Assembly (NCBI RefSeq): GCF_003790525.1
Contig: NZ_CP033635.1
Direction: 5' to 3' (one strand)
Length of the DNA stretch: 64,000 nt
Origin: Escherichia coli
GTDB taxonomy: Bacteria > Pseudomonadota > Gammaproteobacteria > Enterobacterales > Enterobacteriaceae
This document shows, piece after piece, positions 20,979 through 41,488 of this stretch. The position numbers and the translations under genes were made by a program. Each line of letters opens with the position of its first letter. The first letter of the stretch is position 1. The notes below the pieces were generated by a model that was not told the DNA's origin, ran no database searches, and saw nothing but the letters and a program-made list of their open reading frames with translations.

Positions 20979-21063
20979 TGGTGCCGAAGGCCGGACTCGA
21001 ACCGGCACGTATTTCTACGGTTGATTTTGAATCAACTGCGTCTACCGATTTCGCCACTTCGGC
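20979..21063 (-). tRNA. leuX: tRNA-Leu (anticodon CAA)
   Basis: 85-nt cloverleaf on the minus strand (GCCGAAGTGGCGAAATCGGTAGACGCAGTTGATTCAAAATCAACCGTAGAAATACGTGCCGGTTCGAGTCCGGCCTTCGGCACCA). Confidence 0.95.
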
Positions 21064-21258
21064 ACTGAAGAGGTATGCGGAAAACGTTGTGGATTATACC
21101 TGTCGCACGCCACCATGCAAGCGCCAGCTTGCTCGCATCTCGCTAAGTGCTGAAATTTTCAGCATTACACTCAGCGATGTGTAACCTTTGTCACACTCCA
21201 GGCACCCCGCCCTGCCATGCTCTACACTTCCCAGACAACACCAGAGAAGGACCAAAAA

Positions 21259-22278
21259 ATGTCGATGATAAAAAGCTATGCCGCAAAAGAAGCGGGCGGC
21301 GAACTGGAACTTTATGAGTACGATCCCGGTGAATTGAAGCCACAAGATGTTGAAGTGCAGGTGGATTACTGCGGGATCTGCCATTCCGATCTGTCGATGA
21401 TCGACAACGAATGGGGATTTTCACAGTATCCGCTGGTTGCCGGGCATGAGGTGATTGGTCGCGTGGTGGCGCTCGGGAGTGCCGCACAGGATAAAGGTTT
21501 GCAGGTCGGTCAGCGTGTCGGGATTGGCTGGACGGCACGCAGCTGCGGGCATTGCGATGCCTGTATTAGCGGTAATCAGATCAACTGCGAGCAAGGTGCG
21601 GTGCCAACAATTATGAATCGCGGCGGTTTTGCCGAGAAGTTGCGTGCGGACTGGCAATGGGTGATTCCGCTGCCAGAAAATATCGATATCGAGTCCGCCG
21701 GGCCGCTGCTGTGTGGTGGTATCACGGTCTTTAAACCACTGTTGATGCACCATATCACTGCTACCAGCCGCGTTGGGGTAATTGGTATTGGCGGGCTGGG
21801 GCATATCGCTATAAAACTTCTGCACGCAATGGGATGCGAGGTGACAGCCTTTAGTTCTAATCCGGCGAAAGAGCAGGAAGTACTGGCGATGGGTGCCGAT
21901 AAAGTGGTGAATAGCCGCGATCCGCAGGCACTGAAAACTCTGGCGGGGCAGTTTGATCTCATTATCAATACTGTGAACGTCAGCCTCGACTGGCAGCCTT
22001 ATTTTGAGGCGCTGACGTATGGCGGTAATTTCCATACGGTCGGTGCGGTTCTCACGCCGCTGTCTGTTCCGGCCTTTACGTTAATTGCGGGCGACCGCAG
22101 CGTCTCTGGCTCTGCTACCGGCACGCCTTATGAGCTGCGTAAGCTGATGCGCTTTGCCGCCCGCAGCAAGGTTGCGCCAACTACCGAACTGTTCCCGATG
22201 TCGAAAATTAACGACGCCATCCAGCATGTGCGCGACGGTAAGGCGCGTTACCGCGTGGTTCTGAAAGCCGATTTTTGA
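21259..22278 (+). CDS. ahr: NADPH-dependent aldehyde reductase, Zn-dependent ADH family
   Basis: 339 aa from [18 protein letters not shown] and GHEVIG zinc-ADH motifs; matches my recollection of E. coli Ahr/YjgB. Confidence 0.85.
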
Positions 22279-22281
22279 AAA

Positions 22282-22845
22282 TCATTCGCAGCGCTGATCT
22301 GAGGCGCTGCCCCCTTTCGCACATATTCTGTCTTGTCGTATCGCCAGCACGGCCTGCCGACATTGTTCGGTGACATTGGCAATATCATGGTTGATATCAA
22401 TGCGCACAATATCCTGTTCATCTGCTTGTGGACGCTCCAGCGCCTCAAACTGACTTTTTAGTAACGCTACCGGCATAAAATGCCCAGCCCGCCGCTGCAT
22501 TCGCGCGAGAATAGTTTCATAGTCGCCATCTAACCAGAGGAAATGAACATGGGGGCTACCCTTGCGTAAAATATCACGATACTGTTTTTTTAATGATGAA
22601 CAGACAATAAATCCTGTTTCATTCTTTTTATAAAGACTGTATGAAGCATCATTTAAGCGTTCCAGCCAGGGAAGTCGATCTTCATCAGATAATGGAATAC
22701 CCTGCGACATTTTATCTATATTTTTGGCTGGATGAAGATCGTCACCATCAATAAATTTAGCAGATAATAACGTGGCAACCTTGCTACCAATTAATGTTTT
22801 ACCACTCCCTGAAACGCCCATCAAAATAAAGCTTTCACCCGCCAT
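22282..22845 (-). CDS. idnK: Gluconokinase (thermosensitive, Gnt-II system)
   Basis: 187 aa; P-loop GVSGSGKT; context with idnDOTR. Confidence 0.85.
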   Translation of the reverse strand: MAGESFILMGVSGSGKTLIGSKVATLLSAKFIDGDDLHPAKNIDKMSQGIPLSDEDRLPWLERLNDASYSLYKKNETGFIVCSSLKKQYRDILRKGSPHVHFLWLDGDYETILARMQRRAGHFMPVALLKSQFEALERPQADEQDIVRIDINHDIANVTEQCRQAVLAIRQDRICAKGGSASDQRCE

Positions 22846-23061
22846 TTAAAATCTCCTGAGTCATCTTACCTGCTGCGATACTACGCCTGGTGGCATAATA
22901 ATTTCACGTTTTTTTATTTCTGCTGATAAGAATTACAAGGCACATCACGTTATGCGTAACATAGTAATGTAACAATTTTCTGACGTGATCTTCATCACAA
23001 ATAATGACAATTAAAACCGCTTAAATGCTTCCGAGGTGTCTACCTGACCAGTGAGGAATTT

Positions 23062-24093
23062 ATGCAAGTGAAAACACAGTCCTGCGTTGTTGCGGGCAAG
23101 AAAACTGTTGCCGTTACCGAGCAGACGATAGATTGGAATAATAATGGAACATTAGTACAAATAACCCGAGGTGGAATTTGCGGTTCCGATTTACATTATT
23201 ATCAGGAAGGAAAAGTAGGTAATTTCATGATAAAGGCACCGATGGTGTTAGGTCATGAAGTTATCGGTAAAGTTATTCATAGCGACTCATCAGAATTACA
23301 TGAAGGGCAAACGGTAGCCATTAATCCGTCTAAACCGTGCGGTCACTGCAAATACTGCATTGAACATAACGAGAATCAGTGTACAGATATGCGTTTTTTT
23401 GGCAGTGCCATGTATTTCCCTCATGTTGATGGTGGTTTTACCCGTTATAAAATGGTCGAAACGTCGCAATGTGTCCCTTATCCGGCCAAAGCTGACGAAA
23501 AGGTTATGGCTTTTGCCGAACCTTTAGCCGTCGCGATTCATGCCGCACATCAGGCCGGCGAGTTACAGGGCAAGCGAGTATTTATTTCTGGTGTTGGGCC
23601 CATTGGCTGCCTGATTGTCAGTGCTGTGAAAACACTGGGGGCCGCGGAAATTGTCTGTGCCGATGTGAGTCCCCGTTCCCTTTCGCTGGGCAAAGAGATG
23701 GGGGCGGAGGTGCTCGTAAACCCACAAAACGACGACATGGATCACTGGAAAGCGGAAAAAGGCTATTTCGATGTCAGCTTTGAAGTGTCCGGTCATCCTT
23801 CATCAGTGAATACCTGCCTGGAGGTCACTCGTGCACGCGGCGTAATGGTGCAGGTAGGGATGGGAGGCGCGATGGCAGAATTCCCAATGATGACGTTGAT
23901 TGGTAAGGAGATTTCACTCAAAGGCTCTTTCCGTTTTACCAGCGAATTTAATACCGCAGTGTCATGGCTGGCGAATGGCGTTATCAATCCACTGCCTTTA
24001 CTGAGTGCTGAATATCCCTTCACTGACCTGGAAGAGGCGCTACGTTTCGCCGGTGATAAAACCCAGGCAGCAAAAGTCCAGCTTGTTTTCTAA
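23062..24093 (+). CDS. idnD: L-idonate 5-dehydrogenase (Zn-ADH family)
   Basis: 343 aa; GICGSDLHYY and GHEVIG motifs. Confidence 0.8.
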   Translation: MQVKTQSCVVAGKKTVAVTEQTIDWNNNGTLVQITRGGICGSDLHYYQEGKVGNFMIKAPMVLGHEVIGKVIHSDSSELHEGQTVAINPSKPCGHCKYCIEHNENQCTDMRFFGSAMYFPHVDGGFTRYKMVETSQCVPYPAKADEKVMAFAEPLAVAIHAAHQAGELQGKRVFISGVGPIGCLIVSAVKTLGAAEIVCADVSPRSLSLGKEMGAEVLVNPQNDDMDHWKAEKGYFDVSFEVSGHPSSVNTCLEVTRARGVMVQVGMGGAMAEFPMMTLIGKEISLKGSFRFTSEFNTAVSWLANGVINPLPLLSAEYPFTDLEEALRFAGDKTQAAKVQLVF

Positions 24094-24116
24094 GAGATAA
24101 ATAAAGGAATAATACA

Positions 24117-24881
24117 ATGAACGATCTATTTTCACTGGCAGGAAAAAATATCTTGATTACCGGTTCAGCACAGGGCATTGGCTATTTACTGGCAACCGGC
24201 CTGGGTAAATATGGCGCACAAATAATTATTAATGATATTACTGCCGAACGCGCAGAACTTGCTGTAGAAAAACTCCACCAGGAGGGTATTCAGGCCGTTG
24301 CCGCACCTTTTAATGTTACTCATAAACATGAAATTGATGCCGCCGTTGAACATATCGAAAAGGACATCGGCCCCATTGATGTGCTGGTGAATAACGCCGG
24401 TATCCAGCGCCGTCATCCTTTTACTGAGTTCCCTGAACAAGAGTGGAATGATGTGATCGCAGTAAACCAGACCGCCGTGTTCCTGGTATCGCAAGCGGTA
24501 ACTCGTCACATGGTTGAACGCAAGGCAGGTAAAGTTATTAATATTTGCTCGATGCAAAGCGAACTGGGACGTGACACCATCACCCCTTATGCCGCATCGA
24601 AAGGGGCGGTAAAAATGCTCACCCGCGGCATGTGCGTCGAGCTGGCGCGCCACAATATTCAGGTCAACGGTATTGCGCCGGGCTATTTCAAAACAGAAAT
24701 GACTAAAGCACTGGTTGAGGACGAAGCCTTCACCGCCTGGTTGTGCAAACGGACCCCCGCCGCACGCTGGGGAGATCCGCAGGAACTGATTGGTGCTGCG
24801 GTGTTCCTTTCTTCAAAAGCCTCTGATTTCGTAAACGGCCACCTGTTGTTTGTTGATGGCGGCATGTTAGTGGCTGTTTAA
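24117..24881 (+). CDS. idnO: 5-keto-D-gluconate 5-reductase (SDR family)
   Basis: 254 aa; TGSAQGIG Rossmann motif; SDR fold. Confidence 0.8.
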   Translation: MNDLFSLAGKNILITGSAQGIGYLLATGLGKYGAQIIINDITAERAELAVEKLHQEGIQAVAAPFNVTHKHEIDAAVEHIEKDIGPIDVLVNNAGIQRRHPFTEFPEQEWNDVIAVNQTAVFLVSQAVTRHMVERKAGKVINICSMQSELGRDTITPYAASKGAVKMLTRGMCVELARHNIQVNGIAPGYFKTEMTKALVEDEAFTAWLCKRTPAARWGDPQELIGAAVFLSSKASDFVNGHLLFVDGGMLVAV

Positions 24882-24945
24882 CACCTACTACCCTACGTGC
24901 AGCGCGAAAGCGCTGCTTTTCTGGCACTAATAAGAGATAAAGACT

Positions 24946-26265
24946 ATGCCATTAATCATTATTGCGGCAGGCGTCGCGCTGCTTCTTATCCTGATGATCG
25001 GCTTTAAAGTTAACGGCTTTATTGCCCTCGTTCTGGTCGCTGCCGTCGTCGGATTTGCCGAAGGGATGGATGCACAGGCCGTCCTGCACTCTATACAAAA
25101 TGGTATCGGCAGCACGCTCGGCGGGCTGGCAATGATCCTCGGTTTCGGGGCCATGTTAGGCAAGCTGATTTCTGATACGGGCGCGGCACAACGTATCGCC
25201 ACTACGCTGATTGCTACTTTTGGTAAAAAACGCGTGCAATGGGCGCTAGTGATCACCGGTCTGGTTGTCGGCCTCGCCATGTTTTTTGAAGTGGGTTTTG
25301 TCCTGCTGCTGCCGTTGGTATTTACCATCGTGGCATCATCTGGATTACCCCTGTTGTATGTTGGCGTACCGATGGTAGCAGCGCTCTCTGTAACCCACTG
25401 TTTTCTGCCGCCACATCCAGGGCCTACTGCCATCGCGACTATCTTTGAGGCTAATCTCGGAACGACTCTACTGTATGGATTTATCATTGCCATTCCGACA
25501 GTTATTGTCGCAGGACCGCTGTTTTCTAAACTGCTAACTCGCTTTGAGAAAGCACCACCGGAAGGCTTATTTAATCCTCATCTGTTTAGCGAAGAGGAGA
25601 TGCCCTCCTTCTGGAACAGTATTTTCGCTGCAGTGATCCCGGTCATCCTGATGGCTATCGCCGCCGTTTGTGAAATTACGTTACCGAAAACTAACACCGT
25701 GCGCCTCTTCTTTGAATTTGTCGGTAACCCTGCCGTTGCGCTGTTTATTGCCATTGTTATTGCGATTTTCACACTGGGCCGACGTAATGGACGCACCATC
25801 GAGCAAATCATGGATATCATTGGGGATTCTATAGGCGCTATCGCGATGATTGTGTTTATTATCGCTGGCGGCGGCGCGTTTAAGCAGGTATTAGTAGATA
25901 GCGGTGTCGGGCAGTATATTTCACACTTAATGACCGGAACTACACTTTCGCCGTTATTGATGTGCTGGACTGTTGCGGCGCTGTTGCGTATCGCTCTGGG
26001 CTCTGCCACCGTCGCGGCCATTACCACCGCGGGTGTGGTGTTGCCGATTATCAACGTTACCCATGCCGATCCCGCTTTAATGGTACTGGCAACTGGTGCG
26101 GGCAGCGTGATCGCGTCACACGTAAACGACCCTGGCTTCTGGCTATTTAAAGGGTATTTTAATCTGACGGTTGGTGAAACGTTGCGTACCTGGACGGTGA
26201 TGGAAACCCTTATTTCTATTATGGGTTTGCTGGGCGTGTTAGCCATTAACGCCGTATTGCACTGA
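24946..26265 (+). CDS. idnT: GntP-family L-idonate/gluconate transporter
   Basis: 439 aa, highly hydrophobic; operon position. Confidence 0.8.
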   Translation: MPLIIIAAGVALLLILMIGFKVNGFIALVLVAAVVGFAEGMDAQAVLHSIQNGIGSTLGGLAMILGFGAMLGKLISDTGAAQRIATTLIATFGKKRVQWALVITGLVVGLAMFFEVGFVLLLPLVFTIVASSGLPLLYVGVPMVAALSVTHCFLPPHPGPTAIATIFEANLGTTLLYGFIIAIPTVIVAGPLFSKLLTRFEKAPPEGLFNPHLFSEEEMPSFWNSIFAAVIPVILMAIAAVCEITLPKTNTVRLFFEFVGNPAVALFIAIVIAIFTLGRRNGRTIEQIMDIIGDSIGAIAMIVFIIAGGGAFKQVLVDSGVGQYISHLMTGTTLSPLLMCWTVAALLRIALGSATVAAITTAGVVLPIINVTHADPALMVLATGAGSVIASHVNDPGFWLFKGYFNLTVGETLRTWTVMETLISIMGLLGVLAINAVLH

Positions 26266-26331
26266 AAGAATAAAATATTGTGATGTAGTTTCGGGGGAAG
26301 ATTGAAGATTCCCCCGACGTTGGGAGAAGTT

Positions 26332-27330
26332 ATGCGCAATCACAGAATTTCTTTACAGGATATCGCTACGCTGGCTGGCGTAACAAAAATGACCGTGAGT
26401 CGTTATATCCGCTCGCCGAAAAAGGTGGCAAAGGAAACAGGCGAGCGCATCGCCAAAATTATGGAAGAGATCAATTATATCCCTAATCGCGCTCCCGGCA
26501 TGTTGTTGAATGCACAAAGTTATACCCTCGGTATCTTGATTCCGTCATTTCAAAATCAACTCTTCGCTGACATTCTCGCGGGAATAGAATCCGTCACCTC
26601 TGTGCATAATTATCAGACCCTTATTGCTAATTACAATTACGATCGCGATTCCGAAGAAGAGTCGGTGATTAACCTGCTCTCTTATAACATTGACGGGATT
26701 ATTCTTTCGGAAAAATATCACACCATCAGGACGGTGAAATTTCTGCGTTCAGCCACCATTCCGGTCGTGGAATTGATGGATGTACAGGGAGAACGGCTGG
26801 ATATGGAGGTCGGTTTTGATAATCGGCAGGCTGCTTTTGACATGGTGTGTACCATGCTGGATAAGCGAGTCAGGCGCAAAATTCTGTATCTCGGTTCCAA
26901 AGATGACACCCGCGATGAACAGCGTTATCAGGGGTATTGCGATGCGATGATGCTGCATAATCTTTCCCCATTACGCATGAATCCACGCGCCATCTCATCC
27001 ATTCATTTAGGAATGCAGTTAATGCGTGATGCCCTTAGCGCAAACCCGGATTTAGACGGTGTATTTTGCACCAATGACGATATTGCGATGGGTGCGCTTC
27101 TGCTGTGCCGCGAGCGAAACCTCGCCGTGCCAGAACAAATTTCCATTGCGGGTTTTCATGGGCTGGAGATTGGCAGGCAAATGATCCCAAGCCTCGCCAG
27201 CGTAATTACTCCCCGTTTTGATATTGGTCGGATGGCCGCCCAAATGTTGCTGAGCAAAATTAAGAATAACGATCACAACCACAACACTGTTGACCTCGGG
27301 TATCAGATTTATCACGGTAACACGCTTTAG
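26332..27330 (+). CDS. idnR: LacI-family transcriptional regulator of the idn operon
   Basis: 332 aa from [17 protein letters not shown] (HTH) with periplasmic-binding-like C-terminus. Confidence 0.8.
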
Positions 27331-27407
27331 GTTATTTTCTCTTCATTACACATATTCTCTTTGCCGGACGTTGCCTATACTCCAGGCAGGAAACTGGAGG
27401 AAATCTC

Positions 27408-28910
27408 ATGAGCGAACCCCTGTTAATTGCCCGCACGCCGGACACAGAACTGTTTTTACTGCCGGGAATGGCTAACCGTCACGGGCTGATTACTGGCGCA
27501 ACGGGGACGGGTAAAACTGTCACGTTGCAAAAACTGGCAGAGTCATTGTCGGAAATCGGTGTTCCGGTGTTTATGGCCGATGTGAAAGGCGATCTGACCG
27601 GCGTCGAGCAGGCAGGAACGGCGTCGGAAAAACTGCTCGCAAGGCTTAAAAATATCGGCGTCAATGACTGGCAACCGCATGCCAATCCGGTGGTGGTGTG
27701 GGATATCTTTGGCGAGAAAGGCCATCCGGTGCGGGCGACGGTTTCGGATCTGGGGCCGCTGTTGCTGGCACGACTGTTGAATCTCAACGATGTGCAATCT
27801 GGCGTGCTGAATATCATTTTCCGCATTGCTGACGATCAGGGATTGTTGCTGCTCGACTTTAAAGATCTGCGGGCAATTACCCAGTACATCGGCGATAACG
27901 CCAAATCCTTCCAGAATCAGTACGGAAATATCAGTAGCGCATCGGTTGGTGCCATCCAGCGCGGATTACTGTCGCTGGAACAGCAAGGCGCAGCACACTT
28001 CTTTGGTGAGCCGATGCTGGATATCAAAGACTGGATGCGCACCGATGCCAACGGTAAAGGCGTTATCAATATCCTCAGCGCCGAGAAACTTTATCAGATG
28101 CCGAAACTGTACGCCGCCAGCCTGCTGTGGATGCTTTCAGAATTGTATGAACAATTGCCTGAAGCGGGCGATCTGGAGAAACCAAAACTGGTGTTTTTCT
28201 TCGACGAGGCACATCTGCTGTTTAACGATGCACCGCAGGTACTGCTGGATAAGATTGAGCAGGTGATAAGGCTTATTCGCTCAAAAGGCGTGGGCGTCTG
28301 GTTCGTTTCGCAAAACCCGTCTGATATTCCGGATAATGTGCTCGGGCAGCTAGGTAATCGCGTTCAGCACGCTTTGCGGGCTTTTACGCCAAAAGATCAG
28401 AAAGCAGTGAAGGCAGCGGCGCAAACCATGCGGGCCAATCCGGCATTTGATACCGAAAAGGCAATCCAGGAACTGGGGACCGGCGAGGCGTTAATCTCGT
28501 TTCTCGATGCAAAAGGAAGTCCTTCTGTGGTGGAACGGGCGATGGTGATCGCACCTTGTTCGCGAATGGGGCCGGTGACGGAAGATGAGCGTAATGGCCT
28601 GATTAATCACTCTCCGGTGTATGGCAAATATGAAGATGAGGTGGACCGCGAGTCCGCCTATGAGATGCTGCAAAAAGGCTTTCAGGCCAGTACCGAGCAG
28701 CAAAATAATCCCCCCGTGAAAGGTAAAGAGGTGGCGGTGGATGACGGTATTCTTGGTGGATTGAAGGATATTTTGTTTGGCACTACCGGACCACGCGGCG
28801 GGAAGAAAGATGGTGTGGTGCAAACAATGGCGAAAAGCGCCGCTCGCCAGGTGACGAATCAGATTGTACGCGGGATGTTGGGGAGTTTGCTGGGGGGGAG
28901 AAAAAGGTAA
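27408..28910 (+). CDS. yjgR: DUF853-type P-loop NTPase
   Basis: 500 aa; Walker A GATGTGKT; follows idnR as in E. coli. Confidence 0.8.
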
Positions 28911-29164
28911 GTCAGACGTGATCTGTGCCCCTCACCCTAACCCTCTCCCCAGAGGGGAATAGTGAGATTTTTTCATTTGGTTGATTTGATTGATCTATAT
29001 CCGTTTTCTTTGAAAATATAGCCCCCAATGTAGCCCCCATCGTATTGTTGCTGTACATGGAGGTAGATTGAACTCAGTTGAGGCATTATCTGTAATGACT
29101 CAGCGAATGCAGTATACCTGTCGGCCTTGTTCAGGACGAGACACAATACCCGTGATGTGTAAGT

Positions 29165-30013
29165 TTATACAGAAGAGCGAAATTTTACCGAATAATGTTT
29201 CGCCAGAACAGCATTCAGCTTCTCCACCAGTTCCGGGTGTTTAAACGTGATATGCGCAGAGCCCTTCCTGAAGTATCTGATGCTGAACATCTCATCTTCA
29301 TAGTACGCTTCACACTGAACGGACCGGATGTGCTCATCCAGACGAATGAGGATATTGTCCCTGTAATCGGGTATGGGTTTACCGCTGAACAGATACAGTA
29401 TCCTTTCCAGGTCGGCAAGCCGCCCTGCCTGCGGACCATGGTTCAGACCAAATCCCCACCAGTCCCATTTCACCAGGTTGTTGAGGATAATCTTGCTGCC
29501 GAATTTACAGGGTGACCTGTTGTTGTGCATCCGGCTCAGTCCTCTGAAGAGGTTGATGACGCCCCGTTCAGCCATTTCACCCCGGTTACGGTGCAGTTGT
29601 TCAGACGTGCTCAGGATATTGGCCTCGCTGATTTCCGGGAAATTATCCTCCTCCAGTGACCGGCACCATTCATCACGCGCCTGTGCATCCATCAGACTCA
29701 GCATTCCGGAGCGTTGCATCAGGTCACGCCAGATTTCGCGGTCGAGGTTGCGGGTGATGGCTTTCATTGCGGTTTCCGGTTTTTCCATCAGCCAGCAGCC
29801 ACAGCGAAAATCCTGTTTCACGGCCCAGTCCCGGGCCGTTTTACCTCCGATGCTTTCTGTCATTACTGAGATTTCTGCCAGTTGCCGGATAAGCCTTTCG
29901 GTTTGTTGCAGTGCTTCATTCCGTACCGTCACAACGTGCCGGATACTGGTTGAGCAGATAACGTCCGTATGTCCGTTAAGCGTTTCCGGACGGGAGACTG
30001 TGATATCAGACAT
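29165..30013 (-). CDS. Hypothetical protein, terminal gene of the CP4-type module
   Basis: 282-aa ORF downstream of the yeeW-like region; family not recognised. Confidence 0.5.
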   Translation of the reverse strand: MSDITVSRPETLNGHTDVICSTSIRHVVTVRNEALQQTERLIRQLAEISVMTESIGGKTARDWAVKQDFRCGCWLMEKPETAMKAITRNLDREIWRDLMQRSGMLSLMDAQARDEWCRSLEEDNFPEISEANILSTSEQLHRNRGEMAERGVINLFRGLSRMHNNRSPCKFGSKIILNNLVKWDWWGFGLNHGPQAGRLADLERILYLFSGKPIPDYRDNILIRLDEHIRSVQCEAYYEDEMFSIRYFRKGSAHITFKHPELVEKLNAVLAKHYSVKFRSSV

Positions 30014-30109
30014 AACCGATATTCCTTTTTGCAGATAAATGAAAACGCCAGCCGTATTCGGACTGGCGTCAGTGGAATGAATCGTGGTGAGTGAGATGAT
30101 GAGTGAGAC

Positions 30110-30814
30110 TCACAGGTTCTGGTGCTGAAGCTGCAGCTGGCGCAGGGTGCGGATATCCTCCCTGGCCTGTTCGATACAGGGCAACAGTGCTGCCGAATCC
30201 GTTTTATCCTCATCGTTGTCGAAGATAATGCAGGAGCCGCAGTCGATATTGTCCTGCAGCCACGCAATCAGAATATCCGGTGCTGTTTCTGTGGTTAATG
30301 ATTTCATACGGTGTCTTTTGTCCCGGTTACCAGTCGAAAGTGGGTAAACCCGGCAGACATTCAGCGCCGGCATCCAGATGAATGAGACTGACGCCATAAC
30401 GCCGGATGAGAGTGACAACCAGACGACGAAACGTTTTTGACAGACCCAGGCGTTTAAGCCGCAGAGCCGGGTACGACCACGCATCAGTACGTAACAGATA
30501 TCCGCTGCCTGTAAAATGAATCCATTCTGATTCGCGTTGTCATTCGTCTGATGCGACAGCGAGTACAGCCAGGCATTGTCCTGCTCCGTGATATGTGCGG
30601 TACTGCAGCGTATGCCGGTAAGGGCCGCAAATGGTGGCATGCAGTCTGCTGAGGTCCGGTCAGATTCATCAGCAACACGAAGGGAACAGCCATTATCGCA
30701 GACCACGTTAATCAGTTCAGCGAGATTAACACCATCGACGTCAGCGACAATGCGCCCCATGTTCAGTGCCTGTACGTTAACGCTGTCGGCTTCCAGTGTC
30801 AGGGACAGTTTCAT
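30110..30814 (-). CDS. Hypothetical protein (yeeW-like position downstream of toxin)
   Basis: 234-aa ORF, 4-bp overlap with the cbtA-like stop. Confidence 0.4.
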   Translation of the reverse strand: MKLSLTLEADSVNVQALNMGRIVADVDGVNLAELINVVCDNGCSLRVADESDRTSADCMPPFAALTGIRCSTAHITEQDNAWLYSLSHQTNDNANQNGFILQAADICYVLMRGRTRLCGLNAWVCQKRFVVWLSLSSGVMASVSFIWMPALNVCRVYPLSTGNRDKRHRMKSLTTETAPDILIAWLQDNIDCGSCIIFDNDEDKTDSAALLPCIEQAREDIRTLRQLQLQHQNL

Positions 30815-31188
30815 GGTTTCACCTCACAGTGTTTACCCAGGGTGATGTTGTTCACCATTCTGTAGTGGCTGCGGGTCATCAGGCCGGTCGCCCGGCGGGC
30901 CCGGAGAATATCAATGCTGCTGATTAACTGCGATGAAGCTCCTGCGCTGAATCCCGGCTGGTCGGTACGCACCAGCGCGTATTTTTCCACAAGAAAGTTC
31001 ACCGCATCACACAGTGAAATTCCTGCCTCAATATGCTGCTCAATCACACGTTCATCGGCAAACGGCGTGTCATTCAGCGTGAGGCCGTAATGCTGGTCCA
31101 GCAGTCTGGTAAGCAGTGTCTGCCAGATTTCAACCGGAGACGGGCGTGAACCGGCCGCCTGCCCGGGTAATACAGGTAATGTTTTCAT
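30811..31188 (-). CDS. cbtA: CbtA/YeeV-family toxin (type IV TA, cytoskeleton-binding)
   Basis: 125 aa from MKTLPVLPGQAAGSRPSPVEIWQ; immediately downstream of the CbeA-like gene. Confidence 0.75.
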   Translation of the reverse strand: MKTLPVLPGQAAGSRPSPVEIWQTLLTRLLDQHYGLTLNDTPFADERVIEQHIEAGISLCDAVNFLVEKYALVRTDQPGFSAGASSQLISSIDILRARRATGLMTRSHYRMVNNITLGKHCEVKP

Positions 31189-31277
31189 ACTGAAGATTTT
31201 CCTGATATGCAGAGATGAGAAATGGGAAAGTGGCGTGGTGAAAACACCAGGCCGTAGCAGAAGGCTATTCTGGAGAG

Positions 31278-31646
31278 TTAATTTTTCATTTTGGGCGTCG
31301 GATAAACAGCCAGATAAACGTAACCACAACTGCTGAGGGTATCGGCTTTGCAGGTCAGCCCTTTTGCATACAGTGTCACGGTATGCTGATGGCGGGGATT
31401 CAGTTCACCGCTGGTGAGCATGAGCTCCAGTTGTTTCATCAGCAGCGGAAAGGCCTGGTCCAGATGGTACGCATCCGCGTCGCTGAACCGGCCTCTGATA
31501 CCGGCGCGGTCGGCAAGGTAATGCAACCGGTTACCCTCCTGCACCAGACGTGCCCCAAAACAGGGCGTCACGGTGCAGGGTAGCCCCCACCAGGGGCGGT
31601 CGTTGTTATCGTCGGGATGCGTTGTCCCGGGGAGTGTGTCTGACAC
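31278..31646 (-). CDS. cbeA: CbeA/YeeU-family antitoxin
   Basis: 122 aa, MSDTLPGTTHPDDNNDRPWWGLP...; paired with the toxin. Confidence 0.75.
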   Translation of the reverse strand: MSDTLPGTTHPDDNNDRPWWGLPCTVTPCFGARLVQEGNRLHYLADRAGIRGRFSDADAYHLDQAFPLLMKQLELMLTSGELNPRHQHTVTLYAKGLTCKADTLSSCGYVYLAVYPTPKMKN

Positions 31647-31725
31647 GATAAAATCCTCACAGAAAATTGGTTAAGAATGGTCCGGTGGTGGCGATAATTC
31701 TGCTCTTCTGAATGCCCTTCCAGAC

Positions 31726-31947
31726 TCAGTTCAGGGTGACGCTCATCAGCCGGACATACGGACCAAAACTGTCCTTACGGCGTTCTGCAAATACAGCCAG
31801 CACACCGGGAATATCCTGTACTTCACGGCCGGTATATGTATCCGTGCTACCGTGCCAGCGGTATTTACCGGTACAGAACGGAAAAAGACGGGATGCAGGA
31901 TGCTGACGGTGAATATGCATGGCTTCACCACGGGTGATGATTTTCAT
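31726..31947 (-). CDS. YeeT-like DUF987 protein
   Basis: 73 aa, MKIITRGEAMHIHRQHPASRLFPFCTGKYRWHG; canonical position between the RadC-like and CbeA genes. Confidence 0.7.
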   Translation of the reverse strand: MKIITRGEAMHIHRQHPASRLFPFCTGKYRWHGSTDTYTGREVQDIPGVLAVFAERRKDSFGPYVRLMSVTLN

Positions 31948-32033
31948 GAGAATAGTCCTCCTGAATGTGAAAGTAAGAAACAGCTGAGAAAGAGAAACTG
32001 AAGTGATATGAAGGTGATTGTGACGGTGACGGG

Positions 32034-32525
32034 TTAAAGCAGACCGTGTTCCGCAAAGGAGAAAACCTGGCTGCCACCGATTATCAGATGGTCCGGTACC
32101 CGGATATCCACCAGGGCCAGTGCCTGTACCAGACGTTCCGTAATAAGGCGGTCAGCCTTACTGGGTGTGACTTCACCTGACGGGTGATTGTGTGCCAGTA
32201 CCACGGCGGCGGCATTGTGGTACAGGGCGCGTTTAATCACCTCCCGGGGATGGACTTCCGTGCGGTTGATGGTGCCTGTGAAGAGGGTTTCACCGGCAAT
32301 CAGCTGATTCTGGTTGTTCAGGTACAGCACCCGGAATTCTTCACGCTCCAGTCCCGCCATGTTCAGAATCAGCCATTCCCGTGCCGCACGGGTGGAGGTG
32401 AAGGCCACGCCGGGTTCATGAAGATGGCGGTCCAGGGTTTTCAGGGCCCGCTGAATGAGGCTGCGCTCACCGGGCGTCATCGCTCCGGGCAGAAAGGAAA
32501 GCTGTTGCATTGTGCTTCTCTCCAT
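32034..32525 (-). CDS. RadC-like JAB-domain protein (YeeS/YfjY/YkfG family)
   Basis: 163 aa; JAMM motif HNHPSGEVTPSKAD. Confidence 0.85.
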   Translation of the reverse strand: MERSTMQQLSFLPGAMTPGERSLIQRALKTLDRHLHEPGVAFTSTRAAREWLILNMAGLEREEFRVLYLNNQNQLIAGETLFTGTINRTEVHPREVIKRALYHNAAAVVLAHNHPSGEVTPSKADRLITERLVQALALVDIRVPDHLIIGGSQVFSFAEHGLL

Positions 32526-33005
32526 TCAGTCGATGATGCGCATAATGGCGCTGCATTCCGGATGCTGCAGGGCGTAATCCCGCAGACGGTAATAATGAAC
32601 CGTCATGGCATAACACTCCGTACGACAGGCATGATGACTGTACGTCATCAGACAGGCAGCAATGCCGGCGGCTTCCGGGCTCATTTCAGCGCGGTTACCG
32701 TTCATGGCATTGAACAGTACCCATGTTTCGTCATCATCATCATCCGGTTCGGGTGCCATAAATGCCCCGCCGTTGTTCAGGGTGTACAGATTCCAGATAC
32801 CACCGCAGTAGTCTTCACACAGACGGTCCATCCAGCCGAAGACACGGGGCTCCAGGGTCACCCACTGTGGAATGAGGCCAAAGTGCTGCGGCCAGAAGCT
32901 GATACGTTGTTCATCAGGGACGAGGCTGGCAACCAACTGAGGCGGATTATTCTCTGGTGTTGTAGCTGAATAAATTGTGGGGGTATTCTGAGAAACGGTT
33001 TTCAT
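32526..33005 (-). CDS. Antirestriction protein, KlcA/ArdB family (YfjX-like)
   Basis: 159 aa; acidic DDDDDE patch; position upstream of the RadC-like gene. Confidence 0.65.
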   Translation of the reverse strand: MKTVSQNTPTIYSATTPENNPPQLVASLVPDEQRISFWPQHFGLIPQWVTLEPRVFGWMDRLCEDYCGGIWNLYTLNNGGAFMAPEPDDDDDETWVLFNAMNGNRAEMSPEAAGIAACLMTYSHHACRTECYAMTVHYYRLRDYALQHPECSAIMRIID

Positions 33006-33086
33006 GAGATAACGCCTTAAATAACAAATAAATGTGTGTTTTTCAGGAACGAAAGCTGAATGATTCCCTCACTCAGGGAAACGGCA

Positions 33087-33908
33087 TCAGCGCAGGCTCT
33101 CCAGCATCGTTTCTGCTATCACCCACAATGCGCGATTGAGCTTAATGTCGGTATCAATGCTGTGAATGGCCCGGGTGTGGATACGTTTTCCTTTTGCACT
33201 GCGTCCCTGAAGACCGCCCTTGAGCATATTCTCCTGGATGGTCTGATAAGCACTCCACAGGTCCTTACCGTAATCCTCCCGGCGTCGTGGTGTCAGAATG
33301 TCGGCGGTGGTGACGGGCTGATGTTCATCACCATAACGGTAAGTCAGTGCCGCCTGTGCCAGCGCCTGGCGTGCCGGTGGCGGCAGGACCAGCGACTGCA
33401 TGGCATCACGCTTCTCCTCTATCCGGTCAAACACGCCCACCACCTCGTAAGCCCCTTCAATGACTCTGTCCACCACATTTCCCCTGTGCGGAACACGCAC
33501 CTCTCCCAGAGACTGACCACAGACGCACCCGTTCTGGCAGACGAATCTGAAGTAACCCGGCAGCATCTGGTAGCTGGAGGTACCGTCATGGGAGTTGAGC
33601 AGGATGATCTCCGGGACATGCTGTCCGTTTATTTCCCCGTCACGACGTAGACGCAGCATGTGTTTTGTGTATCCCCGGTGGCCCGGGTCCCGTACGCGGG
33701 TCTGGCAGGCGAAAAAGGGCTGGAAGCCTTCCCGCTGCAGGCTTTCCAGCACGGTGATGGTGGGGATATACGTATAGTTCTGGCTTCGGGACGTGTGTTT
33801 CTCTTCCCCGAAAATACTCGGTACATGGTGCATCAGCTCTTCATGTGTCAGTGGGCGGTCACGGCGTATCTGGTTTGCAGCATAACCAAAACGACTGGCT
33901 AATCGCAT
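33087..33908 (-). CDS. YfjQ/YafZ-family (DUF932) protein
   Basis: 273 aa; position after the YeeP-like GTPase as in CP4-type islands. Confidence 0.6.
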   Translation of the reverse strand: MRLASRFGYAANQIRRDRPLTHEELMHHVPSIFGEEKHTSRSQNYTYIPTITVLESLQREGFQPFFACQTRVRDPGHRGYTKHMLRLRRDGEINGQHVPEIILLNSHDGTSSYQMLPGYFRFVCQNGCVCGQSLGEVRVPHRGNVVDRVIEGAYEVVGVFDRIEEKRDAMQSLVLPPPARQALAQAALTYRYGDEHQPVTTADILTPRRREDYGKDLWSAYQTIQENMLKGGLQGRSAKGKRIHTRAIHSIDTDIKLNRALWVIAETMLESLR

Positions 33909-34008
33909 ACTTTGCTCCTTATCGGTGGTTAAGATTTACTGGTGTAATAAATGAAAAAAACCACGTCTCCCGGAGAAGACGCGGCCTGACAGATGAAATG
34001 AATGACGT

Positions 34009-34242
34009 TTATTGTCTGAGAAGCCCTTCACTGGCGAGATACGGATTTAGCTGTTTTCCGGCATCAGGTTCAAAATTCCAGCACCGCCAGCGTAGCTGCC
34101 CTTCAGCATTGCGAATAACCAACCGGAAATGCGTTCCCTGGTCATCTTCAGTAAACACATTGCGGTAAGCTGTTGTGACAGCCATCGCCTGTTCGCGTGA
34201 GAAAGGGCCTTCGGGCAATAAAACAGGGTGACAGTCCGACAT
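34009..34242 (-). CDS. Small hypothetical protein (DUF905-like)
   Basis: 77-aa ORF in operon orientation. Confidence 0.45.
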
Positions 34243-34247
34243 ACCGG

Positions 34248-34925
34248 CTATTTTCCGATAAATTCAACGCTGGCACCGGTGGCATTACCGTCAGCACCAA
34301 CCGTGACGGTCACTTTGTCGTACGCACGGTCTTCAGGATTGAACACTTCAAACTCAACCTTATTGCCTTTTACTTCGTAAGAGCCAAAATCAGCGGTTTC
34401 TGTTGTTTCCTCGTCATATTCCCGGGCGTATGCCTGCCGGGCAGCCTGCAGGACGGAATCTTTATTAATAGTGGTCGTCTGTTTCGGGGAAAAACCGGCA
34501 AGTGATGTGACAAATTTCGGACAGACCTTCAGCATATCACCGCGGGTGAATTCCATTCGTACACCAAATGCCTGTAAAACGGACACATCACGCTCTGCTA
34601 TGGAGTGAACGGCTTTTTTGACCATTTCCGGCGCCTGTCCGACTTCCACCTCAACAGCCCTGAATCCCGTCTGCTGATTACACATTTGTGATGTGGGGAT
34701 CAGGTTACCGTTAATACTGATACGGCTGCCCAGGAGCGTCTGTACGCCATTCGGGCATTCCTGCATCAGGCCGGTAATACCAATCGTGCCATTTTTCAGC
34801 ATTACCAGTGCCTGACCATCTTCCGTCATGGTCTGACACCAGCCGTTTTTGACAGCCCAGTTGCCGGCGGAGGCGGAGAAGGATGCCACAGTGAACAGCA
34901 GGGGAAAAAGAATTCTGGTATTCAT
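34248..34925 (-). CDS. Secreted hypothetical protein
   Basis: 225 aa; N-terminal signal peptide [20 protein letters not shown]. Confidence 0.55.
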
Positions 34926-35043
34926 GACTGACCTCTGAAATTAAAGAGCGTGTTATTGATAATGACAGACGGTATACGGCAGTGGTTACCGTAATCCGTT
35001 GTCGTGTAAAGGTATACGGTTGCCACGGGGGACTCCGGGGCGC

Positions 35044-35928
35044 TCAGAACAGGTGATCCCACAGTGTGACCAGCAGGTGGATAATGCGGGCCCGGGCTTT
35101 ACGCAGAAGCTGTAACATCCAGGCCGGAAAACTGAACCGGGCAGCGGCGTCGTCAAAACTTTTCCCGATGGCGTCACCAAAAGTCTGTTGTGCGTGTTTC
35201 TGGGCCTGTTCAGAGCGGTTTTCTCCCCGGATATGTGAATAAACCGCGCTGGTTGCCTGTGGTGGCAGTGCGTGGATCATCAGTGACACCAGTGCCTGAA
35301 GATTCCAGCCGACAGGCGCTGCAACGGAGAGTACCGGAAATGATGACGGGAACAGGGTGGCCACCCGGGCTGTTACTGTCGCCAGTGAGAGTTCCTGCTG
35401 ACGGGACGGGCATTTTTCTGTGTCGTTCCATTCTTCAGCAGGAAACACGCGATCGGCATGGCTGAGAACAAACAGAAAACGCGAGGGATCGGCATCTTCA
35501 TTCAGTAAAAACTGATGCATGGCGATGTCGGCAGCATACGCACGTTCATCAGCCCGCAGGATCCAGATAATCAGATCCAGTTCCGGTAGCAACTGATGAT
35601 AAAGTGCCCGGTATTCCTGATCATGCTGCGGTGTCTCACCAATGCCGGGCAGATCGACCAGCGTCATTCTGCGTTCACCGATCTGCAGGGTGAGGTGATG
35701 AGCCTGGCGGGTGCAGCCGTTCAGGGGATGCGTGGCGCAGATATGGGACTGAAAAATGGCATTACACAGGCTGCTTTTGCCTGTGCCGGATTTACCCATA
35801 ATGCCAATCACGGGCTCGTAATGAATAACACCGTGGAGATGTTCAAGGATTTTCTGGCGAATTTCTTCAGGAAGAAACGTCAGATATGATTTCACTTGTG
35901 CAGAGAGGGAAGAATGGCTGAATGACAT
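35044..35928 (-). CDS. YeeP/YkfA/YfjP-family 50S ribosome-binding GTPase
   Basis: 294 aa; G1 GKSGTGKSS; G3 DLPG. Confidence 0.8.
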   Translation of the reverse strand: MSFSHSSLSAQVKSYLTFLPEEIRQKILEHLHGVIHYEPVIGIMGKSGTGKSSLCNAIFQSHICATHPLNGCTRQAHHLTLQIGERRMTLVDLPGIGETPQHDQEYRALYHQLLPELDLIIWILRADERAYAADIAMHQFLLNEDADPSRFLFVLSHADRVFPAEEWNDTEKCPSRQQELSLATVTARVATLFPSSFPVLSVAAPVGWNLQALVSLMIHALPPQATSAVYSHIRGENRSEQAQKHAQQTFGDAIGKSFDDAAARFSFPAWMLQLLRKARARIIHLLVTLWDHLF

Positions 35929-38439: not shown

Positions 38440-38640
38440 TATACACATGTTTTTATTAAGTGTTATATACATATCTTTTTAAATAGATAATTCTACACAT
38501 ATTTTACTAAGTATTTTTACTAAGCATTTCAGTAAGTGTTATACACGTATTTTCTACTAAGTGTTTTACCAGACATACACGTGTTTTCATAAACAGCCCT
38601 ATAAGTGTTTTCATTAAGCATTGCTGTACACATTGCTTTG
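38440..38640. repeat. Iteron-like cluster of short direct repeats (TAAGTGTT and TACACRTRTTTT)
   Basis: At least 4 copies of TAAGTGTT and 5 of TACAC(A/G)T(A/G)TTTT within 200 bp of noncoding DNA. Confidence 0.6.
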
Positions 38641-39522
38641 TCTGAAACTCATCCAGTTTAGTAAATCTTTACGTTAGCTAAAATCAGTTTAAAGCTGCTG
38701 TAAAACCTTTCTGTTTAAGCAATCAATCTGCTATTCGATTTTACTGATGTTGCGTTTAACCTTTTCTGAGATTTCGAGTTTCGACGTTAGCATGAGAAAA
38801 GTATCTTTACGCTAAATCAACCCGAACTTTCCTGAAGTAATCTGACGTTTTTTTCGATGTGCTTTCGACGATTCTGTTAAACGACTTTCTGGATGTTTTG
38901 ATAACAATCAGATTGAGGCATTAACGATTCCTGACGTTTTGCTTTTTCATGTAAGGTCATTGTTTTCGTCATGATGTGATTTTTCTTCTTGCATTGCGAA
39001 AGTGTGATGATTGGTTTTGGTTTTTTGATTCAGATGAGATTTACGTTATCGATGGTTAATCGTTTTTATGGTGCGTAGTGAAATGTAACATTTTCGGGAT
39101 GAGAAAATCGATTCTGATGGTGATGGGGATGATCGTGTTACGGCGTTATCTGTAAACAGGTTTTAAACGTGTCATTCGCATTCGTGATTGAGTAATGTGG
39201 TTAAGCTGTAGGTTTTGGTGTTGTTGTTGATTCACAGCGCCAGAAAGTGCTCTGATTGCGTTTCTGGTGTTTTGTTCGAATGTTCTGTGGATCCTTTTCC
39301 CTTCTGACTTTTCTCGTTGTCCATGTCGTTTTTAAATCCATTCGCTGTTCTTGAGTGTTTTTACCCTGCGTGTAGAATTATCTTTTCGTTCCGGGATGGT
39401 TTGTTCCGTTTCAATCACTCTTAATCAGAGAGTTGTAGCATTGCTCAATGCCGGATGCCGTAAAGTTTTACCGCAGTGATTAATGATGTGAAGTCAATCC
39501 AAATCAACGGAGATCTCTCATC

Positions 39523-40254
39523 ATGAATCAACCAATACACAATGCTTACTGGTTATCCCGTTTTGACAGCCTTCTCAACAGTGCCCTGGCGCAACACCGT
39601 GCCGTTTCGTTAATCCGGGTGGATTTACGTTTTCCTGAGTATATGCCTGCCACCATTATGGATACCGATTTAGATTCAGCGGTGATTTCTCGTTTTTTCG
39701 AATCCCTGAAAGCCAAAATCCAGGCTTACCAGCGGAAAAAACGACGTGCCAACAAGCGTGTGCGTGCAACCACCCTGCATTATTTCTGGTGTCGGGAGTT
39801 TGGCAAGGAAAAAGGCAGGAAACATTATCACGTGATATTACTGCTCAACAAAGATACCTGGTGCTCGCCAGGGGATTTCACCGTTCCTTCTTCGCTGGCG
39901 ACACTGATCAAGCTGGCATGGTGTAGTGCTCTGCATCTTGAGCCCTGGCAGGGTAATGGACTGGTTCATTTTTCCAGGCGGACGCCTTTCCGTAAACCGA
40001 CATCATCTGATGCTCGCCCTTCTTCCGATGATACGCCTTTGTCGGGTGGATGTTCTGATACCAGGAAGGCTTCAGACAAAAAGCCGGGTGAAGCCGCTGT
40101 TCTCTGGATCAAGCGTGGTGATGTGGAAGCGCTGCAGAAAGCCCGGAACAGAGCCAGTTATCTCGTGAAATATGAGACGAAGCAGCATGACGGTTCCGGG
40201 CAACGTAATTATGGTTGCAGTCGTGGGCCGGGGCGTCTGCTGGATGGCAGGTGA
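39523..40254 (+). CDS. Inovirus Gp2-like / YfjJ-YagK family protein
   Basis: 243 aa; motif VSLIRVDLRFPEY shared with two downstream paralogues. Confidence 0.65.
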   Translation: MNQPIHNAYWLSRFDSLLNSALAQHRAVSLIRVDLRFPEYMPATIMDTDLDSAVISRFFESLKAKIQAYQRKKRRANKRVRATTLHYFWCREFGKEKGRKHYHVILLLNKDTWCSPGDFTVPSSLATLIKLAWCSALHLEPWQGNGLVHFSRRTPFRKPTSSDARPSSDDTPLSGGCSDTRKASDKKPGEAAVLWIKRGDVEALQKARNRASYLVKYETKQHDGSGQRNYGCSRGPGRLLDGR

Positions 40255-40610
40255 GCCCTGTAAAACGACATCCGGTGCCTGAGCTTATGCTACAGGACGT
40301 TGGCTGACGCCCTTAGCTCGTTTTCTGAAAAAGTCGTCCTGAAGTCATGCAACGGTATTTTTCTCTGCTTTCGCTCCTGGAAACACTCCGTCGGTAAAAC
40401 CTTACTGTCCTGCTTAATGATGTGAACCGAAGTCAACGGAGAGCATTCATTCTGAACCTGCATCCGGTGTTCTGTCCCTTGTCGGTTACCTGATCTTCCC
40501 GTTCTGCCGCGGTTTTTCACTTATTCCATCAACCCCATACGCAAGCCATAACACGTCAGCGCATCCACGGGCAGGACGCGTTGTGGGCTGCGTATAACGG
40601 AACATATCTT

Positions 40611-41183
40611 ATGAATGCTATCCCTTATTTCGACTATAGCCTTGCCCCCTTCTGGCCATCTTATCAGAACAAAATCATCGGCGTTCTCAACCGTGTGTTG
40701 CGCGAGCAGTCCTGCTCCCGAATACGGCGGATCCTGCTTCGTCTGCCGGGGGAACATGGCAACATCTTCAGCGACAGAAAAACCTGGTTCGGTATGGCCT
40801 TTATCGAAACCGTCAGTGCGCTGATGAATGCAACCCCCGGACGCGACCTCTGCTGGCTCCTGACACGTCATCCTGAAAAACCGGAATACCACGTGGTGCT
40901 GTGCGTCAGACAGGAATATTTCGACGGCCCTGAGCTGGACCGGTTGATTCTGGATGCCTGGAGCAACGTACTGGGCTTCGCGTCACCGGGTGAAGCAGCA
41001 CCGTACCAGAAACAGATAACCCGGGATGTGGTGCTGGACAGTTGTTCACCGGACTGCGAAGAGAGACTCAAAGAGCTGATATGGGCGTTCAGTGATTTCG
41101 CCCGCGATCGTCGTGGTGTGCGCGATCCGGAAGCCCGTTACCTCGCCGGTAATCCCTGGTATCCCGTAGCAGGCCAGCTCTGA
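40611..41183 (+). CDS. Inovirus Gp2-like / YfjJ family paralogue
   Basis: From the ATG at 40611 (MNAIPYFDY...); motif RIRRILLRLPGEHG. Confidence 0.6.
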   Translation: MNAIPYFDYSLAPFWPSYQNKIIGVLNRVLREQSCSRIRRILLRLPGEHGNIFSDRKTWFGMAFIETVSALMNATPGRDLCWLLTRHPEKPEYHVVLCVRQEYFDGPELDRLILDAWSNVLGFASPGEAAPYQKQITRDVVLDSCSPDCEERLKELIWAFSDFARDRRGVRDPEARYLAGNPWYPVAGQL

Positions 41184-41251
41184 AAGCTCAGCTCAGCAGA
41201 TTCACCCGCATTTGCCCAACATTCATAAATCTCACAGAGGACATTCTGACC

Positions 41252-41488
41252 ATGTTGACCTCAATGACAGGTCACGACAGCGTATTGCTGCGTGCCGACG
41301 ATCCCCTGATCGACATGAACTACATCACCAGCTTCACTGGTATGACCGACAAATGGTTTTACAAGCTGATCAGTGAAGGCCATTTCCCTAAACCCATCAA
41401 ACTGGGGCGCAGCAGCCGCTGGTACAAAAGTGAAGTGGAGCAGTGGATGCAGCAACGAATCGAGGCATCACGAGGGGCAGCAGCATGA
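41252..41488 (+). CDS. AlpA-family regulator
   Basis: 78 aa; HTH FTGMTDKWFYKLISEGHFPKPIKLG; RBS AGAGG. Confidence 0.7.
   Translation: MLTSMTGHDSVLLRADDPLIDMNYITSFTGMTDKWFYKLISEGHFPKPIKLGRSSRWYKSEVEQWMQQRIEASRGAAA

Follow-up and report, generated by a model that had tools for sequence, protein, structure and literature searches.

CP4-44 and CP4-57 are P4-integrase islands of Escherichia coli K-12, CP4-6 is a further P4-like prophage of this kind in that strain, and other CP4-type islands sit at transfer RNA (tRNA) genes. CP4-44 and CP4-57 share a module in which a GTPase gene (YeeP/YfjP) is followed by genes for a DUF932 protein (YfjQ), an antirestriction protein (YfjX/LfgA), a RadC-like protein (YeeS/YfjY), a DUF987 protein (YeeT/YpjJ), an antitoxin (CbeA/YfjZ), a toxin (CbtA/YpjF) and a YeeW-like protein; in CP4-57, which is inserted at ssrA, the module lies at the end opposite the integrase. 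Here we analysed the same module, with the same gene order, at positions 29165-35928 of a 64,000-nt stretch of the E. coli contig NZ_CP033635.1 (the window), where it adjoins the core gene yjgR and is very probably the intact integrase-distal (attR) module of a large island that was placed by its own integrase at a palindromic attB.

The module proteins are close orthologues of those of CP4-44 (YeeS 98%, YeeT 92%, CbeA 95.9% and CbtA 89.5% identity) and more distant paralogues of those of CP4-57 (YfjQ 73.5%, YfjX/LfgA 68.6%, YfjZ 66% and YpjF 67%). A preliminary description of this DNA had named the GTPase, DUF932, KlcA-like, RadC-like, YeeT, CbeA and CbtA families and had recognized in this set the distal module conserved among CP4-type islands; Pfam profiles and alignments to K-12 proteins bore out the families, and synteny with CP4-44 and CP4-57 agrees with the recognition. 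The gene order given there also holds, except that a gene for a 225-residue protein and a DUF905 gene between the GTPase and DUF932 genes had been omitted, and the two genes listed as unknown are indeed two open reading frames (ORFs), of the families DUF5983 (fused to DUF957) and DUF4942. In itself the module is already known, ordinary and widespread in E. coli: it is matched in 5013 of 5426 complete genomes, over at least 80% of its length in 1820 of them, and the median genome has 3 copies. The island carrying it here differs from CP4-44 and CP4-57 in being far larger (~92 kb in E. coli CM2), in adding DUF905, DUF5983/DUF957 and DUF4942 genes and, in this copy, in lacking Ag43 and YeeR. Unlike CP4-57 at ssrA, it uses as attB a palindrome in an intergenic repeat, and the associated integrase is ~36% identical to IntA. 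There is neither an integrase nor a tRNA gene at this end, as had been noted before, but this is the normal architecture and no sign of displacement, the integrase of CP4-57 being located at the ssrA end.

The boundary between core and island is made up of the following features.

27408-28910, plus strand: yjgR (HerA-like/DUF853), core gene and left flank of the insertion site; an ORF, annotated as yjgR in CM2 and SMS-3-5.
28928-28957, no strand: CCCCTCACCCTAACCCTCTCCCCAGAGGGG, the left half of a palindromic, GC-rich dispersed repeat, derived from the core and identified against the empty site of SMS-3-5.
28945-28957, no strand: attR core, a direct-repeat copy, palindrome CTCCCCAGAGGGG, which recurs at the integrase end in CM2 and AR_0085.
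28958-29164, no strand: island terminus, P' arm of attR, beginning with AATAGTGAGATTTTTTC, conserved at all junctions.

The end of yjgR is 99.7% identical to E. coli yjgR, and it lies 254 bp from the stop codon of the DUF4942 gene, so that the module abuts this core gene as had been claimed. The last core-homologous position is 28957, and homology to islands of other strains starts at ~28923-28958; the first position of the island itself is 28958, where an imperfect GC-rich palindrome (CCCTC-TCCCC AAA GGGG-CGAGGGG) has its apex. The junction reads ...CCCTAACCCTCTCCCCAGAGGGG / AATAGTGAG or, in a longer read, ...GTGCCCCTCACCCTAACCCTCTCCCCAGAGGGG / AATAGTGAGATTTTTTCATTTGG..., with the slash between core and island. 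In island-free strains the repeat half at 28928-28957 runs on as ...GGGGCGAGGGGACCG, and the repeat is uninterrupted between yjgR and lptG; the site in the island-free strain SMS-3-5 reads ...CCCTAACCCTCTCCCCAAAGGGGCGAGGGGACCG, then lptG (longer read ...GTGCCCCTCACCCTAACCCTCTCCCCAAAGGGGCGAGGGGACCGTTCG..., then lptG). The pattern CTCCCC-N3-GGGG has a single site in the window, at the attR core. Twin TAGCCCCCA motifs are found at 29019-29027 and 29031-29039, ~60 bp inside the DUF4942 end, and the same pair immediately precedes the start codon of the integrase gene at the opposite end of the island; these are candidate arm-type integrase binding sites. An analogous twin motif is present at the distal end of CP4-57. 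Integration at the 3' end of a tRNA or transfer-messenger RNA gene, as is characteristic of CP4-type islands, does not apply here, since no tRNA gene lies at the junction; the only one detected in the window with ARAGORN is that for tRNA-Leu (leuX, anticodon CAA; 20979-21063, minus strand).

The SMS-3-5-type lptG-yjgR spacer of 118 bp is present in 1794 of the 5426 complete genomes (about one third). The K-12 spacer differs, containing a repetitive extragenic palindromic (REP) element and no copy of the palindromic repeat, so that attB is polymorphic in E. coli; the K-12 record has no repeat annotated at the lptG-yjgR locus. In megablast searches, the median E. coli genome had 5 places matching the repeat part of the spacer and the richest had 12, and this part therefore belongs to a dispersed repeat family, presumably that called 'Box C', a name that a literature search could not confirm. 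DNA folding of the attB palindrome was not statistically unusual (z = -1.4), and we treat the palindrome, as read from its sequence, as putative inverted core-type binding sites rather than as evidence for a hairpin substrate.

Among the 5426 genomes, the junction of yjgR with the DUF4942 module was found in only one, that of E. coli CM2. There, a continuous island of ~92 kb fills the interval between yjgR and lptG, with the DUF4942 module adjoining yjgR and, adjoining lptG, a gene for an integrase of 397 residues with the Arm-DNA-bind_3, Phage_int_M and Phage_integrase domains of the P4 type. The integrase-side junction of CM2 reads GATCCTCCCCAAAGGGG / CGAGGGGACCG (longer read ...GATCCTCCCCAAAGGGG / CGAGGGGACCGTTCG...). 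When joined, the core flanks of CM2 give exactly the empty site of SMS-3-5, with no loss or gain, and a 12-14 bp sequence TCCCCA-N-AGGGG stands at both island ends. A search for att repeats, which the preliminary description had proposed, thus identified the palindromic core at 28945-28957, duplicated at both ends of the CM2 island. An exact rebuild of the empty site together with a short duplication is what site-specific recombination leaves behind. Across the junction (20975-31145), window and CM2 are collinear at 98.65% identity, and the order and orientation of the ahr-idn-yjgR block are the same as in CM2, SMS-3-5 and K-12. P4-type integrase genes at the opposite island end were seen in CM2, AR_0085, HCM-27C-1, FDAARGOS_1252 and G8; the island of the window runs past position 64000, and by analogy with CM2 its far end presumably abuts lptG in this genome. 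No relaxase or type IV secretion genes are present in the annotated islands of CM2 or AR_0085.

In the mechanism we infer, a P4-type tyrosine integrase encoded at the other end of the island would have inserted it by site-specific recombination into an attB that would be no tRNA gene but a palindrome of 12-15 bp, CTCCCC-NNN-GGGG(AG), here probably the apex of that copy of the GC-rich dispersed repeat which lies between yjgR and lptG. The excised circle would carry an attP of the form GATCCTCCCC-NNN-GGGGAATAGTGAG, and the restored attB would be CCCTCTCCCCAAAGGGGCGAGGGG. Given the many copies of the repeat and the palindromic core, an island family of this kind can enter many loci and in either orientation.

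Such a distribution is seen in other strains. All integrase-side junctions read core...CCCC-NNN-GGGGAGG followed by AT(C/T)TATT, and the core flanks are lptG (CM2), zntA (HCM-27C-1), glnH (FDAARGOS_1252), ulaD (AR_0085) and ulaE (G8, JNEC-KY203). All DUF4942-side junctions read ...CTCCCC-NNN-GGGG followed by A(A/G)T(A/G)GTGA, and were found at yjgR, ygfF, tusA, glnP, fabI, dolP/yraP, gabP, a transketolase gene and ulaE. The intergenic sites are all copies of one repeat, CCCCTCACCCTAA(C/T)CCTCTCCCC..., and small site-specific substitutions among these copies indicate that the repeat is core DNA and not borne by the island. The ulaE site shares with the intergenic sites only the palindrome of 15 bp. 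In AR_0085, a related island of ~82 kb interrupts ulaE at codons ~14-18 and has ulaD on one side and the remainder of ulaE on the other, with CTCCCCGGCGGGGAG duplicated at both ends. In G8 and KY203 the integrase end of the island meets a core flank of ulaE which in AR_0085 adjoins the DUF4942 end instead; both orientations thus occur, as is expected of a palindromic core. Insertion at these codons disrupts or re-heads a metabolic gene, that for L-ribulose-5-phosphate 3-epimerase, and AR_0085 is annotated with a chimeric product of 303 residues.

Over 28958-33013 the island end of the window has 2 mismatches in 4056 bp to the islands at glnP, dolP and gabP, and it is 99.93% identical to the island at fabI over the 2760 bp that are readable there. 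Taken together, a 4 kb island end of 99.95% identity is found at the copies of the repeat at these four loci and at a transketolase gene, and the occupants of ygfF, tusA/zntA and ulaE are relatives. Either the island has moved recently, or the near-identical ends stem from independent integrations of one island type; ends of 99.9% identity at at least 5 loci suggest, as far as sequence can tell, that it is still mobile. Pairwise identity is 96-98% among the integrases at lptG, zntA and glnH, and 82-84% between this group and the integrases at ula; against IntA of CP4-57 and the leuX integrase of the window, all of them reach only ~35%. About 90 of the 5426 complete genomes carry this integrase family.

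We lean, with far less assurance than for the placement of the module itself, towards a broader view, in which the P4-type integrase of a family of 80-100 kb fitness or pathogenicity islands has exchanged tRNA genes for a new target, the apex of a multi-copy GC-rich palindromic intergenic repeat (core CTCCCC-NNN-GGGGAG), and the islands have become as site-promiscuous as a REP-targeting element, with dozens of potential attB and insertion in both orientations. Insertion sequences that target palindromic REP or bacterial interspersed mosaic element (BIME) repeats are IS1397 and IS621, which use transposases and not tyrosine integrases. A large island that integrates at a short palindrome, TTCATGAA in bacA, is described for PAISt of Streptomyces turgidiscabies in the available part of the source (PMC4057263), according to which PAISt, unlike the multi-site island here, uses that single site. 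PAISt, IS1397 and IS621 are precedents by target type, likened by description rather than by sequence comparison. Closest in E. coli are the non-tRNA insertion sites glnP-glnH and ulaE-ulaD, for each of which an own integrase was reported (Biggel 2020, PMC7686366, available part); the same two loci are used by the integrase and terminus family described here. The accessible portion of that paper contains no palindromic core, dispersed-repeat target, pair of ula orientations or lptG-yjgR site, and, unlike the islands it covers, the visible part of the window island has no pap operon. In the literature on E. coli islands, of which our coverage was incomplete, we did not find these four features described, and no paper other than Biggel 2020 was seen to mention the gln and ula sites. 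We regard the targeting as a modestly novel variant, with lptG-yjgR as a rarely used target.

A module without a nearby tRNA or integrase gene is easily misread as the product of rearrangement, and here it marks a palindrome-targeting island family. Targeting of this kind could explain why virulence and fitness islands, probably including the papGII islands at the gln and ula loci, are found at unconventional and variable positions, where island finders anchored on tRNA genes would miss them. It also offers a tractable system for the retargeting of a P4-type integrase from tRNA genes to a repeated palindrome.

Three other origins of the junction were weighed. That it is a chromosomal rearrangement, formed when copies of the repeat or paralogous modules recombined, homologously or illegitimately, we consider improbable. 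Substrates for such exchange are plentiful, with the repeat at a median of 5 places and the module at a median of 3 copies per genome, and mosaicism is evident; yet recombination between module copies cannot make a new island/core junction, and ulaE, which has only the 15-bp palindrome and not the repeat, shows the same termini in both orientations. Moreover, the breakpoint is at the same nucleotide everywhere, only 12-15 bp are duplicated, and the core order leuX-ahr-idn-yjgR is intact.

Still less probable is the origin favoured in the preliminary description, that the surrounding insertion sequences (ISs) separated the module from its integrase and tRNA gene and carried it to yjgR, or rearranged the island. 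Several IS copies are indeed present in the window (two of IS1414, one each of the IS3 and IS110 families, and an IS1 remnant), and relatives differ in IS-associated cargo, as around 43151-43915, where a phosphotransferase system (PTS)/transketolase cluster of CM2 is missing. However, neither IS homology nor a transposase was found between yjgR (28911) and ~43.2 kb, and the boundary shows neither an IS end nor a target-site duplication. What is found there is a precise att-type junction, located on the palindromic core at the same island nucleotide as at at least 8 other loci, and CM2 has the intact island, with its integrase beside lptG and an exactly reconstituted empty site, which together argue against the claim.

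It is hardly credible that the module derives from the leuX island, which lies 8 kb leftwards, and was split off by inversion or by capture of ahr-idn-yjgR: although a P4-type integrase gene (19562-20827) and tRNA-Leu are only ~8 kb away, leuX has its 3' end on the left, where its elements extend as a tandem array, the leuX integrase is ~34% identical to the integrase family tied to this terminus, the orientation of ahr-idn-yjgR is standard, and no leuX-derived direct repeat is present at 28958.

Against integration of the island by its own integrase at the palindrome, which we prefer to these origins, the following points have to be set. The integrase end of this island lies beyond the window, its position at lptG is extrapolated from CM2, and, given the mosaicism, the far end could have been exchanged. 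The junction region of CM2 is 95.7% identical to that of the window and differs in the loop triplet (ATA versus AGA), and the two insertions may have arisen independently or have undergone recombination later. Of the 1794 genomes with the repeat-bearing version of the spacer only one, that of CM2, is occupied, so the site is rarely used. Finally, scans of species-representative genomes (GTDB) gave no further examples of the terminus motifs, and the evidence for the family is confined to E. coli strains: the attL pattern GGGGAGGATYTATT-N(5-30)-GATTTCAACAGA had 0 matches, and the twin motif TGGGGGCTA-NNN-TGGGGGCTA had 24, in unrelated taxa and none of them enterobacterial, which we judged close to the chance expectation of ~9, a rough figure derived from how many bases the motif specifies and how large the collection is.

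The module comprises eleven ORFs, all on the minus strand, ten of which have a clear family assignment. Families were called from Pfam and NCBIfam profiles, identities to K-12 proteins were taken from BLASTP, and structural relatives were identified by sequence matches to the PDB. In the direction of transcription, the genes are:

35044-35928, minus strand: YeeP/YfjP-like GTPase, first module gene (Pfam MMR_HSR1, 7.7e-15; 35% identity to YfjP).
34248-34925, minus strand: conserved protein of 225 residues, with no Pfam or NCBIfam match; AR_0085 and ApSLC23 have a 'hypothetical protein' annotated at the syntenic position.
34009-34242, minus strand: DUF905 protein (Pfam, 5.1e-30).
33087-33908, minus strand: DUF932 protein, YfjQ-like (Pfam, 1.9e-51; 73.5% to YfjQ).
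32526-33005, minus strand: ArdB/KlcA-type antirestriction protein (Pfam Antirestrict, PF03230, 2.4e-37).
32034-32525, minus strand: RadC-like JAB-domain protein, YeeS/LfgB-like (Pfam RadC, 5.3e-45; 98% to YeeS, 70.6% to LfgB/YfjY).
31726-31947, minus strand: DUF987 protein, YeeT-like (Pfam, 5.4e-39; 92% to YeeT).
31278-31646, minus strand: CbeA (YeeU) antitoxin, 122 residues, GTG start (Pfam PF06154, 1.4e-53).
30811-31188, minus strand: CbtA toxin, 125 residues from the ATG (Pfam CbtA_toxin, PF06755, 1.9e-55, full profile coverage).
30110-30814, minus strand: DUF5983 (YeeW-like), frameshifted and fused to the DUF957 frame, an ORF of 234 residues (BLASTP and alignment).
29165-30013, minus strand: DUF4942 protein, 282 residues, last island gene (Pfam, 2e-58).

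The antirestriction protein matched the PDB entries 2wj9 (1e-101) and, for KlcA, 2kmg (4.2e-21), and by sequence it is a member of the ArdB/KlcA group. CbeA is 95.9% identical to K-12 CbeA and matched 2h28 (YeeU, 1.2e-80); CbtA is 89.5% identical to K-12 CbtA over all 124 residues, the program-called ORF extending to 31329. The cbeA gene is directly upstream of cbtA on the same strand and ends 89 bp before the cbtA ATG. The frameshift in the DUF5983 gene is a deletion of 1 nt, seen in the alignment with CM2 and AR_0085 at column 300; by BLASTP, residues 1-112 of the resulting ORF correspond to DUF5983 and residues 170-233 to DUF957. The identical ORF of 234 residues also appears among the gene calls of further public assemblies, which shows that the deletion is a genuine allele and not a sequencing error. 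The same 234-residue product was also found in islands that encode a DUF4942 protein of 280 residues and terminate at tRNA-Ser genes, with infA-aat and ghrA as the flanks, so that alleles of the module appear to have been exchanged between island families with different integrases. The identical DUF4942 protein is indexed in 103 blocks of a public collection, with differing core flanks, and has no relative in the PDB by sequence.

ArdB/KlcA proteins block type I restriction. K-12 CbtA inhibits the polymerisation of FtsZ and MreB (PMC5624674); among the K-12 CbtA/CbeA paralogues, CbeA-type antitoxins neutralise the toxin (PMC5371832), and in the K-12 pair the antitoxin does so without binding it (PMC5624674, PMC5371832). 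LfgB, a RadC-like paralogue, was reported as a protease (PMC10846083). By homology to these proteins, the CbtA of the island would block FtsZ and MreB and CbeA would counteract it, resulting in addiction to the island; the ArdB/KlcA protein would block type I restriction; and the RadC/JAB, DUF932, DUF987, DUF905 and DUF4942 proteins and the GTPase would be co-inherited partners. With these putative biochemical roles, the module as a whole most likely serves stabilisation of the island and its establishment after transfer.

Beyond the module, the island continues to the right edge of the window with the following features.

39523-42237, plus strand: island backbone with a YagK/YfjJ-like gene (39523-40254), an AlpA-like helix-turn-helix gene (41252-41488) and conserved unknowns, syntenic in CM2, AR_0085 and ApSLC23.
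42238-64000, no strand: island cargo with genes for a YadA-like adhesin, MliC, PTS and UgpB and, as putative cargo, for a tripartite ATP-independent periplasmic (TRAP) transporter, reaching the window edge.
43151-43915 (~43.2-43.9 kb): IS1 remnant, replacing a LacI/PTS/transketolase cluster found in CM2.
47232-48507: IS1414.
57365-58653: IS3-family insertion, missing from CM2.
59915-61003: IS110-family transposase, beyond which the window is no longer collinear with CM2.

The first two backbone genes matched the Pfam families YagK_YfjJ_C (1.2e-36) and Phage_AlpA (2e-10), and the AlpA-like gene is possibly an excision regulator. The cargo is 99.8% identical to that of CM2 over 48508-57364 and 99.5% over 58654-59976, with collinearity up to 59976; the integrase end is outside the window. 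The TRAP transporter genes, DctM and DctQ (61962-63775, at the right edge), are not collinear with the CM2 island.

An island with near-identical cargo and the same backbone order is found at selC in E. coli ApSLC23 and in avian pathogenic E. coli (APEC) strains, and resembles AGI-3. Its identity to the window is 99.76% over the cargo at 48508-58526 and 97.3% over 38598-47252; it has a different terminus, abutting setC/yicL at selC, with twin AACCCCCA-type motifs after DUF4942 and a terminal module that is only 85% identical. From these comparisons, recombination between islands has clearly occurred, and the island is a mosaic.

On the other side of the junction, core genes extend leftwards to leuX, beyond which lies a separate set of elements.

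21217-28910: core genes ahr, idnK, idnD, idnO, idnT, idnR and yjgR, to the right of leuX.

The sole integrase gene in the window (19562-20827) is part of a separate leuX element that runs leftwards. The 3' end of leuX points left, and the leuX elements form a leftward tandem array with a partial leuX repeat of 24 bp at 9622-9645. The proximal element is a P4-like satellite of ~11.3 kb, missing from CM2, with a primase-helicase gene (10180-12513) and the intact gene for a P4-type integrase of 421 residues (19562-20827); the older element of this hotspot ends in an integrase pseudogene (~8639-9421) and the partial leuX copy. Further left, window positions 1-7054 are collinear, at 99.97% identity, with a stretch beside the annotated JetD-domain (Wadjet) gene of CM2. 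The IS1414 copy at 1-616 truncates the 3' end of a gene for 1361 residues (601-4686) in the window; the counterpart of this gene in CM2 is split in two and ~365 nt longer.

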